Assembly (NCBI RefSeq): GCF_003991155.1
Contig: NZ_CP031293.1
Strand: one strand, 5' to 3'
Origin: Escherichia coli
Lineage (GTDB): Bacteria > Pseudomonadota > Gammaproteobacteria > Enterobacterales > Enterobacteriaceae
Length of the DNA stretch: 64,000 bases
This document shows positions 45,001-51,000 of the stretch, in pieces. How positions within the stretch are numbered: the stretch's first letter is position 1; each line of letters begins with the position of its first letter. Made by a program: the position numbers.

Positions 45001-48000
45001 CGATGCGTTATCTGTTCATCTGGAACGCGGCGCGGTTAACCTTGCGGATTTCGCCTGGGCACGGCAGCTCAACGGCGAAGGGATGCGCGAACTGCTGCAA
45101 CAGCCTGGCTATATTCAGGCTGGTTACAGCTTGTTGAATGCGCCAGTTGCCGCCCGCTGGCAGCGGAAAATTATCGACACATTAGCGACTTATCATGAGC
45201 AACATCGCGATGAGCCTGGTCCTGGGCGCGAACGTCTGCGACGTATGGCGTTGCCAATGGAAGATGAAGCGCTGGTACTGTTGCTGATTGAAAAGATGCG
45301 CGAAAGCGGCGACATCCTCAGTCATCACGGTTGGCTGCATCTGCCGGATCACAAAGTGGGCTTCAGTGCAGAGCAGCAGGCCATCTGGCAAAAAGCAGAG
45401 CCGCTGTTTGGTGACGAACCGTGGTGGGTGCGTGATCTGGCAAAAGAGACGGGTACCGACGAGCAGGCAATGCGCCTGACGCTACGCCAGGCGGCGCAGC
45501 AGGGGATAATTACCGCGATCGTTAAAGATCGTTATTACCGTAACGATCGGATTGTCGAGTTTGCTAATATGATCCGCGATCTCGATCAGGAGTGTGGCTC
45601 GACCTGCGCGGCGGATTTCCGCGATCGCTTAGGCGTAGGCCGAAAGCTGGCAATTCAGATTCTGGAATATTTTGACCGCATTGGCTTTACGCGTCGTCGT
45701 GGAAATGATCATTTATTACGCGACGCATTATTATTTCCGGAAAAATAAGGAAATGATTAATTCATAATAAATATGAATTAATACAAAATTTCTTATTAAT
45801 GTTAAGAAGGCACGTTATTTGATGAATGTAACGTGCTTTTTATTAAAAATATTTTAATAAACGGTAATATTGATCATATTTTCAAATGAAAATTCTCAGT
45901 AAGCTGCCCGCCCTTTTTTACACTTTCAGGAGTGTGTTATGGCAGCTTCAACCTTTTTTATTCCTTCCGTGAATGTTATTGGTGCTGATTCATTGAATGA
46001 TGCAATGAATATGATGGCAGATTATGGATTTACCCGTACCTTAATTGTCACCGACAATATGTTAACGAAATTGGGTATGGCGGGTGATGTGCAAAAAGCA
46101 CTGGAAGAACGCAATATTTTTAGCGTTATTTATGATGGCACCCAACCTAACCCAACCACGGAAAACGTCGCCGCAGGTTTGAAATTACTTAAAGAAAATA
46201 ATTGCGATAGCGTGATCTCCTTAGGCGGTGGTTCTCCGCACGACTGCGCAAAAGGTATTGCGCTGGTGGCAGCCAACGGCGGCGATATTCGCGATTACGA
46301 AGGCGTTGACCGCTCTGCAAAACCGCAGCTGCCGATGATCGCCATCAATACCACGGCGGGTACGGCCTCTGAAATGACCCGTTTCTGCATCATCACTGAC
46401 GAAGCGCGTCATATCAAAATGGCGATTGTTGATAAACATGTAACTCCGTTGCTTTCTGTCAATGACTCCTCTCTGATGATCGGTATGCCGAAGTCACTGA
46501 CCGCCGCAACGGGTATGGATGCCTTAACGCACGCTATCGAAGCGTATGTTTCTATTGCCGCCACGCCGATCACTGACGCTTGCGCACTGAAAGCGGTGAC
46601 CATGATTGCCGAAAATCTGCCGTTAGCCGTTGAAGATGGCAGTAATGCGAAAGCGCGTGAAGCAATGGCTTATGCCCAGTTCCTCGCCGGTATGGCGTTC
46701 AATAATGCTTCTCTGGGTTATGTTCATGCGATGGCGCACCAGCTGGGCGGTTTCTACAACCTGCCACACGGTGTATGTAATGCTGTTCTGCTGCCACACG
46801 TTCAGGTATTCAATAGCAAAGTCGCTGCAGCACGTCTGCGTGACTGTGCCGCTGCAATGGGCGTGAACGTGACTGGTAAAAACGACGCGGAAGGTGCTGA
46901 AGCCTGCATTAACGCCATCCGTGAACTGGCGAAGAAAGTGGATATCCCGGCAGGCCTGCGTGACCTGAACGTGAAAGAAGAAGATTTCGCGGTACTGGCG
47001 ACTAATGCCCTGAAAGATGCCTGTGGCTTTACTAACCCGATCCAGGCAACTCACGAAGAAATTGTGGCGATTTATCGCGCCGCAATGTAATCATCATTCC
47101 CGCAACGGCTGGCGAGTTGTCAGCCGCTTTTTCAACTATCTCAAAACTTGCTTTTTTTGAGATAGTTTCTCTTTCCTGCTATATACTATCTCAATATTGC
47201 GCTTTTTTGAGATAAGCACATGGCTATCAAATCACCTCCCGGACTTATTCCTTTATCACACTTATCGGGTGAGGAACTCCTGGCCCACCTGCGCTTTAAC
47301 CGGGTTACCGATGAAAAAGGACGTTATCTGCCTTTTGATGAGTTGCAGTACCGCATCAAAAAAGGAGAAAACGTCGATGTGGCGTGGACGCTTACCCGTC
47401 TGGCGCGCAACGCGGCGATCCAACGAATTAATTATTGCAATGAAGCGGGTGAACAGGCCGGATTCAACATTACCCCGGTGCTTGCAGAAGCGTGCGAGCT
47501 TGTCGACAAACGTGCTACCGCGCTGGCGCTGAAAGATCAGACTGAACGGTTACGCGGGGCCGGAGCCGAGTTAAGCCAGTTACGCCTGGAAGAGCCGATC
47601 ACCAGCTCCCAGCTGGAAGGTGCGAATACTACAACGCTGGTGGCGAGAAAAATGCTGGAAACAGGGCGGTCGCCACGCACTGAAGACGAGCATATGATTG
47701 CGGGAAATGCCCGGCTGATGGCGGAAATTCCGCACTTACTCGCAGAACCGCTGACACCTGCGCTTATTCGCCAGTTACATGCCATTGGTATGGGTGGAAT
47801 CAATGACGCGAAATATCGTCCGGGAGAATTTCGTGAAACAGATGATGTTGTGATCGCCGACTATGATGGCAATATAGTGCATCAACCGCCCGCTGCGGCA
47901 TTGTTACCGGAACGGCTGGAAAAAGTTTGCCAGTGGTTAAACAGCCATGAAGGGTATATTCATCCGTTGGTCCGTGCCTGCATTCTGCATTTTATGCTGG

Positions 48001-51000
48001 CCCATGAACATCCGTTTCGGGATGGCAACGGGCGCACCAGTCGGGCGCTGTTTTACTGGTATATGCTGAAATCGGGCTACGATGTCTTTAAATATATTTC
48101 CATCAGCCGTTTGCTTCATGCTGCACCGGTCAAATATGCCGCCAGCTACCAGTACACTGAATCAGATGGTATGGATCTGACTTATTTCCTTGAATATCAG
48201 GCGGGTGTCATTAAACGTGCTCTGCAAAACTGGCAGCAGCATATCGATGAAATTACACAACGAAGCGCAAAACTCGATAGTGTGCTGTTTAGCTCTGGTG
48301 TGCTTAAACGCCTGAATCCGCGCCAGGTAACGCTCCTGAATGTGATGCTCGCCAATCCGGGGAAAGAGTACACAGTTGCTGAAATTAGCGCGAGCCTGGG
48401 CGTCTCTGATAATACGGCTCGAGCTGATTTACGGACAATTGTTAAAGAAGGGTTTGCGCAAGAGAAGAAAATTAATGACCAGCAAGCCGTGTACTTCGCG
48501 CATTATCCGCTGTAACCCTTGCCCGTAAATTCGTGATAGCCGTCGTAAAGCTGTTATCGACTGGCGAAGATTTCGCCAGTCACGTCTACCCTTGTTATAC
48601 CTCACACCGCAAGGAGACGATCATGACCAATAATCCCCCTTCAGCACAGATTAAGCCCGGCGAGTATGGTTTTCCTCTTAAGTTAAAAGCCCGTTATGAC
48701 AACTTTATCGGCGGCGAGTGGGTAGCCCCTGCCGACGGCGAGTATTACCAGAACCTGACGCCGGTGACCGGACAGCTGCTGTGCGAAGTGGCGTCTTCGG
48801 GCAAACGAGACATCGATCTGGCGCTGGATGCTGCGCACAAAGTGAAAGATAAATGGGCGCATACTTCGGTGCAGGATCGCGCGGCAATTCTGTTTAAGAT
48901 TGCCGATCGAATGGAACAAAACCTTGAACTGTTAGCGACGGCTGAAACCTGGGATAACGGCAAACCAATTCGCGAAACCAGTGCTGCTGATGTACCGCTG
49001 GCGATTGACCATTTCCGCTATTTCGCCTCGTGTATCCGGGCACAGGAAGGCGGTATCAGTGAAGTTGATAGCGAAACCGTGGCCTATCATTTCCACGAAC
49101 CGTTAGGCGTGGTGGGGCAGATTATTCCGTGGAACTTCCCGCTGCTGATGGCGAGCTGGAAAATGGCTCCCGCGCTGGCGGCGGGCAACTGTGTGGTGCT
49201 GAAACCCGCGCGTCTTACCCCGCTTTCTGTTCTGCTGCTAATGGAAATCGTCGGTGATTTACTGCCGCCAGGCGTGGTGAACGTGGTTAACGGCGCTGGT
49301 GGGGAAATTGGCGAATATCTGGCGACCTCGAAACGCATCGCCAAAGTGGCGTTTACCGGATCAACGGAAGTGGGCCAACAAATTATGCAGTACGCCACGC
49401 AAAATATTATTCCGGTAACCCTGGAACTGGGCGGCAAGTCGCCAAATATCTTCTTTGCTGATGTGATGGATGAAGAAGATGCCTTTTTCGATAAAGCGCT
49501 GGAAGGCTTTGCACTGTTTGCCTTTAACCAGGGCGAAGTTTGCACCTGTCCAAGCCGTGCTTTAGTGCAGGAGTCTATCTACGAACGCTTTATGGAACGC
49601 GCCATCCGCCGTGTCGAAAGCATTCGTAGCGGTAACCCGCTCGACAGCGTGACGCAAATGGGGGCGCAGGTTTCGCACGGGCAATTGGAAACCATCCTCA
49701 ACTACATTGATATTGGTAAAAAAGAGGGCGCAGACGTGCTCACCGGCGGGCGGCGCAAGCTGCTGGAAGGCGAACTGAAAGACGGCTACTACCTCGAACC
49801 GACGATTCTGTTTGGTCAGAATAATATGCGCGTGTTCCAGGAAGAAATTTTTGGTCCGGTGCTGGCGGTGACCACCTTCAAAACTATGGAAGAAGCGCTG
49901 GAGCTGGCGAACGACACGCAATATGGCCTGGGCGCGGGTGTCTGGAGCCGCAACGGTAATCTGGCCTATAAGATGGGGCGCGGCATTCAGGCCGGGCGCG
50001 TGTGGACCAACTGTTATCACGCTTACCCGGCACATGCGGCGTTTGGCGGCTACAAACAGTCGGGCATCGGACGCGAAACCCATAAGATGATGCTTGAGCA
50101 TTACCAGCAAACCAAGTGCCTGCTGGTGAGCTACTCGGATAAACCGTTGGGGCTGTTCTGATGTGAAAGGCAGGCAACGTTAATAGTTGTCTGCCTTTGT
50201 TTTAGTTGTATAAAGCGGCAGTCGCTTTTAACTCATCGCTGAAAGAATAAATATCATCGAGAGATTCAATAGGATGGCGGGTTTCGTTTTTCTCTAAGTC
50301 AAATAAACCAATATATTTTTGATTTCGATTGAAATGTAATCTACAGAGTGGCTTTCGATTATTGTCATCTACAAGTATACCAAAATAGCTTTTTGTATCT
50401 CTGTGGACTATTCGTGGTGCATCAAGCACTACGCGGACTATAGCTTTAACAATATGAAATCCTTCAAGTTCCTCCATAGTAGTGGCAATATCGGTTTCTT
50501 CTTTATTAATACATTCTACTTCCTCATTGTGTGAATTCGAATCAATTACAGATAATGACCCACCACCTATTGCCGATTTCAATCTTTCGTTTATTTGAGA
50601 GTTAATATATTGATTGGCAGCTTTCTTTGTTAATTTTGCAAACGTATCTTTTACCTTTTGTGTTAACATACCTTCATAAATTCTTGCTGCAAAGAATTTT
50701 ACAAAATCCTCTTCAGGATTATTCATTTGTGCATGGAGAACTTTTTTAATTAAACTAACATATTTTAATTCACCTGCAGCATTAATTATTGATTCCAAAT
50801 CAAATGCTGATTTAGTAAGCTTCTTTATCTCGGGAATAACTGTTTCATCTAAGTCAAGTAGATCTATCTCAAGAAATGGTTTTTCATCCATTTTATTAGG
50901 TGCTTCTAAATCAGTAAAAAATTTATAAACTTGTCCATTGGTTAGAATAGATATTCTTGCATTTGTTACATGAAAGTATCGAAAAAGCTGTGAAGCATGA

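Follow-up and report, generated by a model that had tools for sequence, protein, structure and literature searches.

Between the genes yiaY and aldB, a 64,000-nucleotide stretch of Escherichia coli DNA (contig NZ_CP031293.1 of assembly GCF_003991155.1; the whole stretch is referred to as the window) carries a gene for a Fic family protein. What does this protein do, and how did its gene come to be present in some strains and missing from others? The gene, called fic here, likely constitutes a self-contained single-gene module: an auto-inhibited Fic AMP-transferase of class II, from the group that comprises SoFic from Shewanella oneidensis, CccR from Yersinia pseudotuberculosis and CbFic2 from Coxiella burnetii, with a proposed mechanism of autorepression and growth arrest. 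The strains without fic appear to have lost it. The region is 100% identical to that of E. coli strain 2016C-3878, and the coordinates of its features are collected in Table 1.

The core of the protein is a Fic domain (Pfam PF02661, residues 177–281, E=1.7e-19). Motif, Pfam domain and fold match all place the protein among the Fic/Fido AMP-transferases, with an HxFx(D/E)GNGRxxR signature within a Fic fold. N-terminal to this core, on the same chain, lies the segment SSQLEG, so that at the sequence level the arrangement is that of class II, and HMMER places its E133-G134 on the EG of the inhibitory motif of human FICD. The spacing from Glu133 to the catalytic H264 is 131 residues. Both the catalytic motif and SSQLEG are invariant in all 30 of the full-length homologues aligned (41–75% identity), every residue of the signature and the inhibitory Glu being retained across this range. 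The fic product is thus probably a class II Fic AMP-transferase with a competent-looking active site, which would attach AMP to proteins. An earlier note, made from the sequence of the window, had proposed a class II Fic protein with a canonical, competent-looking motif, an inhibitory helix at SSQLEG and a winged-helix-like domain at the C-terminus. The Pfam assignment that it had suggested as a check and the homologue alignment, in which no key residue of the Fic motif is lost, bear out the first two proposals, and the third is borne out by the structural model and the domain matches described below.

An AlphaFold2 (AF2) model built from a 30-sequence alignment has a mean predicted local distance difference test score (pLDDT) of 83.8 and a predicted TM-score (pTM) of 0.81. 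In this model residues 367–427 form a winged helix-turn-helix (wHTH), consisting of helices 367–378, 386–393 and 397–409 and wing strands 413–417 and 423–427. Pfam matches to helix-turn-helix (HTH) families are weak in this protein itself; among its 30 homologues, at E≤0.001, HTH_DeoR matches twelve and SoFic-like_C two. Helix 397–409 is probably the DNA recognition helix as judged from the model, and residues S396, N398, T399, A400 and L404 in this region are conserved. The location of the winged helix C-terminal to the Fic domain corresponds to the SoFic-like Fic-wHTH architecture (InterPro IPR048770 for the C-terminal domain). All full-length Foldseek matches are likewise Fic-wHTH proteins, the top entries of the Protein Data Bank (PDB) being CbFic2 (8cil) and SoFic (3zcn/3eqx), followed by 4rgl, 7xux and 7cb8, at 15–21% identity. 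The PADLOC SoFic model PDLC03963 matches residues 96–428 over profile positions 30–351 of 361 (E=1.2e-43, 147.9 bits, irrespective of PADLOC's thresholds for a call), whereas the NCBIfam SoFic equivalog NF046030 scores 40.3 bits against a curated cutoff of 550. By these profile and fold matches the protein, which the earlier note had not assigned to the SoFic/CccR group, is a member of the SoFic/CccR/CbFic2 architectural group, though not orthologous to the SoFic of S. oneidensis.

The Fic core is preceded by two further elements. Helix 86–112 is aligned with the N-terminal dimerization helix of SoFic, which comprises L28–L50 (bioRxiv 10.64898/2026.07.09.737422): phmmer pairs the query from residue 91 onward with 3eqx from residue 34 onward, and the match to the PADLOC SoFic profile begins at residue 96. 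The first 85 residues form a separate domain of three helices and a β-hairpin, which has a pLDDT of ~90 and adopts the same fold whether it is modelled by itself or as part of the whole protein. Residues D31, Y36, R45, W56 and R63 are invariant in this domain, for which no structural relative is detectable. When 1.84 billion representative proteins were searched with a profile, only 191 clusters matched the domain at E≤0.001; it is always at the N-terminus, in proteins of ~420–490 residues and in shorter sequences that are read as fragments. Within these sequence data the N-terminal domain defines a modest subfamily and is found only there. The unassigned domain is a candidate sensor. A more elaborate proposal, which must be regarded as doubtful, is that this sensor, placed before the dimerization helix, converts a phage or stress cue into a change of monomer-dimer state and thereby of operator occupancy and AMPylation, giving a one-protein circuit of sensing, derepression and intoxication distinct from SoFic and CccR. 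If this were true, one switch would govern both operator occupancy and AMPylation activity.

Upstream of fic, two operator-like palindromes lie within the 86 bp before the start codon, 50 bp apart from start to start. This conserved pair had been overlooked in the earlier note. The arm TATCTCAA is counted four times within 78 bp, against 1.27 occurrences expected in 64 kb. A putative σ70 promoter is interlaced with the palindromes: its predicted −35 hexamer, TTGAGA, which matches the consensus at five of six positions, is the right arm of the distal palindrome, while the proximal palindrome directly follows the −10 hexamer, spans the predicted transcription start and contains the likely Shine-Dalgarno sequence in its right arm. 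The same arrangement, TTGAGA followed after 17–19 nt by a TATAnn-like hexamer just before the proximal site, is repeated in the upstream sequences of homologues. In species-representative genomes, CTCAA-N12-TTGAG (at most one mismatch) occurs upstream of 13 of the 17 closest loci among the matches listed, at −72 to −80 (about −76) and −22 to −31 (about −26) from the start codon, and it is 74 times as dense upstream of the fic homologues as in the remainder of the same loci. A proximal-site match at −22 to −31 is present in 12 of these 13 motif-bearing loci (again among the matches listed) and in 13 of 14 further homologue loci that were inspected. Across 52 half-sites (consensus yTRTCTCAAww), upstream of genes for proteins down to ~40% identity, the core TCTCAA hardly varies, and the full operator consensus is TRTCTCAA-N12-TTGAGAYA in two copies, with arms 12 bp apart and sites 50 bp apart.

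The genomic contexts of the operator-bearing homologues are diverse. They include an integrative and conjugative element (ICE) in Salmonella, a position flanked by VF530 and nasR-like genes in Pseudescherichia, a P4-like satellite of Klebsiella, and sites beside P2 baseplate genes (a P2-like prophage) or an integrase; further homologues are located between proY and malZ, between ruvC and aspS, near a resistance-nodulation-division (RND) pump and near rpoD. Because the gene is the sole element that travels with the sites across these unrelated contexts, its own winged helix is the simplest candidate for the protein that binds them. Within E. coli, the operator region of the window differs from that of strain EDL933 at 2 of 86 positions, compared with 6 of 43 in the adjacent terminator spacer, and in the O145 allele it is identical except for one position despite a synonymous divergence (dS) of 0.2 in the gene. 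An inverted-repeat operator over the gene's own promoter, as in CccR, is thus present at the sequence level, and by analogy with CccR the palindrome pair points to autorepression by the winged helix of the protein itself.

Could the palindromes act as RNA instead, in attenuation or as terminator structures, or by masking of the ribosome-binding site? The terminator scan did pick up the distal palindrome, and the right arm of the proximal one overlaps the likely ribosome-binding site. However, the TCTCAA core is invariant in sequence, beyond what complementarity explains, the loop is fixed at 12 nt and the sites at 50 bp from each other. The distal site moreover lies upstream of the predicted −10, so that it would be untranscribed, and it is preceded by the real terminator of yiaY; an Rfam search over positions 46900–48750 matched no RNA family. 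A role as RNA or terminator structures is therefore very unlikely.

If the palindromes are operators, the protein might be mainly a transcription factor, in which the Fic domain senses a ligand or nucleotide, with no protein substrate, and which regulates other genes as well. Such a role would agree with the high conservation of the operator pair, with the regulation of additional genes by CccR (PMC9755527) and with the reported coupling of CbFic2 activity to DNA binding. The catalytic residues and the inhibitory Glu are, however, invariant at 41–75% identity, which would not be expected if catalysis were dispensable. The window holds no other perfect operator site, near matches being no more frequent than by chance, and the homologue loci inspected share no conserved neighbour that could be regulated. 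A primarily regulatory protein of this kind is unlikely.

In the module that we favour, the protein would dimerize via helix 86–112, as in SoFic, and would bind each palindrome through its two winged helices. With the −35 inside the distal site and the transcription start within the proximal one, binding would repress the gene's own promoter and keep the protein scarce. Glu133 would block productive binding of ATP until a signal relieves the inhibition, and the released enzyme would then AMPylate an essential cellular protein, causing growth arrest; the targets of its relatives are EF-Tu (SoFic) and FtsZ (CccR). By analogy with such relatives, the most likely role is that of a solo accessory gene for conditional growth arrest or for anti-phage protection of the abortive-infection type. 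A SoFic-type standalone Fic protein indeed protects against phage (bioRxiv 10.1101/2022.05.11.491447), and PDLC03963, the model matched by the fic product, represents the SoFic single-gene anti-phage system of PADLOC and DefenseFinder (Millman et al.). Homologues are carried on an ICE, a phage satellite, a prophage and plasmids, and in a collection of sequenced phages just four, distant and partial, are found. An accessory, defence-like or addiction-like role is favoured because the gene is mobile and patchily distributed, being missing from 71% of E. coli genomes.

Several observations weigh against this module. A literature search by locus tag returned no paper on this fic, and no biochemical or genetic work on the subfamily. 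The characterized members of the group are distant (17–21% identity in structural alignments; 40 versus 550 bits in NCBIfam). The inhibitory segment (residues 115–139) is the sole low-confidence part of the AF2 model although it is invariant in sequence. A consensus promoter scan did not call the fic promoter, the last base of the −10 being A, and the promoter is hence a predicted one. The E. coli site is a stable chromosomal position between metabolic genes and not an obvious defence island. Deletion of a 'SoFIC' gene predicted by PADLOC/DefenseFinder in E. coli NILS69, which may or may not be this fic, brought no change with the phages tested (PMC12409345). Finally, SoFic also removes AMP, so that by analogy the net activity could amount to reversible regulation and not to toxicity.

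The last point leads to a possible, though less than probable, alternative: an endogenous reversible regulator which adds AMP to and removes it from a housekeeping target such as EF-Tu and so tunes growth or translation, the winged helix setting dosage only. SoFic de-AMPylates EF-Tu constitutively and AMPylates it in a dimerization-dependent manner, for which a role in growth-rate adaptation has been suggested (bioRxiv 10.64898/2026.07.09.737422). A regulator of this type would also suit the stable locus in E. coli and E. albertii, the strong purifying selection on fic and the lack of a phage phenotype on deletion of the predicted SoFIC gene in NILS69. It is harder to reconcile with the 71% of E. 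coli genomes that do without fic and with the mobile elements that carry its homologues, both of which fit an accessory or defence gene better.

The proposed growth-arrest module is of wider interest since class II constitutes most of the Fic family and a target or trigger is known for few of its members. The gene occurs in major pathogenic lineages of E. coli (O157:H7, O55:H7, ST131, UTI89), and its clean absence from K-12 makes K-12 a natural null background for toxicity, target and phage tests. The dual operator provides a testable regulatory model as well as a genomic signature for finding the subfamily. Should fic prove to function in defence or growth arrest, it would contribute to the strain differences in phage susceptibility that are relevant to phage therapy.

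Among 5426 complete E. coli genomes, fic is present in 1572–1575 (~29%), always on the chromosome; the carriers include O157:H7, O55:H7, O145:H28, ST131 and UTI89. The copy is intact in 1572 of 1575 carriers, and between diverged alleles the ratio of nonsynonymous to synonymous divergence (dN/dS) is 0.055–0.08, indicative of purifying selection. A pseudogene or decaying remnant is ruled out by these 1572 intact copies and the dN/dS of ~0.06. The distribution survey, which the earlier note had named, thus confirms its expectation of a strain-variable gene that is not part of the core, and its statement that yiaY and aldB are adjacent in K-12 is correct as well, the two genes being 164 bp apart. 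Its suggestion that fic was inserted between them is not supported, for the reasons that follow.

The fic-less alleles retain fic-specific sequences. At the K-12 junction, CAACTATCTC is joined to TGTAACCC (the right side begins with TGTAA), by which the distal operator's left arm and the stop codon of fic are preserved. A second fic-less allele (L003-type, 550 genomes) reads AACTATCTCAAAATTTGCGATTTTTGAGAGAGTTTTAGTTATCTCTGTAA and consists of the whole distal operator with one mutation plus ~12 nt resembling the 3′ end of fic; BLAST aligns this stretch with the end of fic in O157. Removal of 36 bp between two TATCTC repeats from the L003-type allele gives the exact K-12 junction. In E. albertii, a fic gene with 95% protein identity, a dS of 0.33 and the same operators is located directly upstream of aldB. 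The remnants, together with the E. albertii gene beside aldB, imply that the K-12 state is a deletion scar, and on this sequence evidence the fic-less E. coli alleles are deletion derivatives and not an ancestral empty site. The deletion probably took place in two steps. In the L003-type allele (L003 1690–1745, 550 genomes) the mutation in the orphaned distal operator is a change of GATAG to GAGAG in the right arm, which would fit relaxed constraint.

A recent horizontal insertion of fic into a K-12-like yiaY-aldB junction could explain the patchy distribution, though the GC content of fic is close to that of the host, and would agree with the mobility of the homologues elsewhere. It would also agree with the uniformity of the fic alleles relative to their flanks: between the window and EDL933 the fic body shows 3 differences in 1264 bp, compared with 3.1% in yiaY and 4.7% in aldB. 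Such an insertion would, however, leave unexplained the operator arm or whole distal operator, 3′ end and stop codon in the fic-less alleles, the derivation of the K-12 junction from the L003-type allele by loss of 36 bp, and the diverged E. albertii allele at the same site. Furthermore, no integrase, insertion sequence (IS) element, att-like repeats or target-site duplication flank fic. A recent insertion is hence improbable. The O145:H28 allele is a mosaic, which differs by 5–6% in the fic body and matches the window at the 5′ end. Judging from these alignments, homologous recombination has evidently carried fic alleles from one lineage to another, and because of this exchange the present distribution of fic is not purely vertical.

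Table 1. Positions of fic, its domains and regulatory elements, and the adjacent genes in the window.
Feature	Position	Strand	Basis or remark
selA and selB	upstream of yiaY	+	
yiaY	45939–47090	+	
Intrinsic terminator of yiaY: GC-rich stem, then T run	47106–47126	+	Terminator scan; still present in K-12
Distal operator-like palindrome, AACTATCTCAAAA-N8-TTTTGAGATAGTT; core TATCTCAA-N12-TTGAGATA at 47137–47164	47134–47167		13-nt arms, 100% complementary
Segment absent from K-12-type genomes (1368 bp)	47142–48509		Comparison with K-12
Putative σ70 promoter: −35 TTGAGA (47157–47162), 17-nt spacer, extended −10 TGc-TATATA (47177–47185)	47157–47185	+	Read from sequence, inferred
Proximal operator-like palindrome, ACTATCTCAA-N12-TTGAGATAAG; core at 47187–47214	47185–47214		Palindrome search and motif count
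fic coding sequence, 431 residues, RefSeq WP_000985745.1 'Fic family protein'	47220–48515	+	Open reading frame call; RefSeq annotation
Subfamily-specific N-terminal domain, residues 1–85 (three helices and β-hairpin)	47220–47474	+	AF2
Helix 86–112, aligned with the SoFic N-terminal dimerization helix	47475–47555	+	phmmer; PADLOC profile
Inhibitory-helix motif S129-S-Q-L-E133-G134, form (S/T)xxxE(G/N)	47604–47621	+	Read in sequence; HMMER; homologue alignment
Fic catalytic motif H264-PFRDGNGRTS-R275 (HPFRDGNGRTSR)	48009–48044	+	Read in sequence; Pfam; homologue alignment
Winged helix-turn-helix, residues 361–427	48300–48500	+	Pfam; homologues; AF2; Foldseek
aldB	48623–50161	+	Downstream of fic

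The boundaries of the gene follow from its surroundings. The ATG at 47220 is taken as the start of fic, and the N-terminal MxIKxPP is kept across homologues; of the span 47101–48515 given in the earlier note the end is correct, while the start includes the yiaY terminator and the regulatory region. As predicted from its sequence, this terminator insulates fic from read-through of yiaY. The 107-bp spacer between fic and aldB is also found in K-12. No AS1-like small partner gene fits into this spacer; only random small open reading frames (ORFs) occur near fic, none of them conserved. A conserved downstream partner is likewise absent from the homologue loci inspected, in which the neighbours vary from locus to locus. 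A mechanical ORF list starts aldB at the GTG at 48533 (542 residues, 48533–50161, + strand); by annotation and conservation, however, aldB starts at the ATG at 48623, which follows AAGGAG.

Other features of the window include a gene for an S6-family autotransporter peptidase of the SPATE type (serine protease autotransporters of Enterobacteriaceae), upstream of yibF at ~37939–41653 (+ strand). A second variable segment lies beside the fic indel at ~50200–58000 and contains a nuclease-like gene, hicAB, a GH127 (glycoside hydrolase family 127) glycosidase, a major facilitator superfamily (MFS) transporter and an AraC regulator, followed by sgbE/sgbU; the same place downstream of aldB is occupied by yiaW-yiaV-yiaU in K-12 and EDL933. 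The nuclease-like gene is an ORF of 359 residues at 50202–51281 (− strand), annotated by RefSeq as 'type I restriction endonuclease', within a patch of 27–35% GC. It shows a weak PADLOC match to the N-terminus of a type IIG restriction enzyme, and stands alone, without an adjacent methylase or specificity subunit. The hicA/hicB toxin-antitoxin pair (51754–52366, + strand) adjoins this low-GC gene.

Among the closest known systems is SoFic (SO_4266; 3EQX/3ZCN). Like the fic product, it belongs to class II and has its inhibitory Glu on the N-terminal side, a dimerization helix before the core and a C-terminal winged helix, and its fold matches with a target-normalized TM-score of 0.62–0.65. Dimeric SoFic binds the 100 bp that precede its gene and AMPylates EF-Tu (bioRxiv 10.64898/2026.07.09.737422). 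In contrast, the identity in structural alignment is 17–18%, the score for the SoFic equivalog remains at 40 versus 550 bits, the fic product has the extra 85-residue N-terminal domain, and the operator sequence defined here has no defined counterpart for SoFic. EcSofic of E. coli H397 is another SoFic-type Fic protein, which is toxic and dimeric and requires its C-terminal domain for activity (PMC12249575). Unlike fic, it is a shorter paralogue, with H194 and E70 in place of H264 and E133, and its gene is followed by that of a 47-residue antitoxin, AS1, a pairing that is not seen at the fic locus. The spacing of inhibitory Glu and catalytic His is similar throughout (E73/H198 in SoFic, E63/H192 in CccR and E70/H194 in EcSofic, ~124–129 residues, versus 131).

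CbFic2 (8CIL) heads the Foldseek matches, with E=6e-12 and 21% identity. It shares the Fic-wHTH architecture, and its (de)AMPylation activity is reported to be induced by DNA binding; it differs in being a reported secreted effector of an intracellular pathogen, acting on host histone H3. The best sequence match among solved structures is human FICD/HYPE (E=2.6e-12), which spans the inhibitory EG through the catalytic loop. FICD is, however, a eukaryotic protein of the endoplasmic reticulum (ER), with tetratricopeptide (TPR) repeats, no winged helix and BiP as its target.

CccR (YPK_0951) combines a class II Fic domain with a C-terminal HTH. It represses its own promoter via inverted repeats near the −35 and −10, for which it must be a dimer, and it AMPylates FtsZ (PMC9755527). 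CccR has a single pair of 10-bp inverted repeats as its site, separated by 26 bp (AGATAATCAT-N26-ATGATAATCT), whereas fic has two palindromes with 8-bp arms 12 bp apart. CccR is a secreted protein of 380 residues without the extra N-terminal domain, and its gene adjoins effector genes of a type VI secretion system (T6SS). The shared architecture and logic of autorepression might suggest that the fic product is also delivered by a T6SS, AMPylating the FtsZ of competitors. But neither the window nor any of the homologue loci inspected has T6SS or other secretion-system genes next to fic, and the identity to the structures of the CccR group is ~18%, so that a secreted interbacterial effector is extremely unlikely. 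Compared with all these systems, the subfamily is, by its sequence features, a distinct one within the known class II Fic-wHTH kind, set apart by its extra N-terminal domain and its own dual operator.

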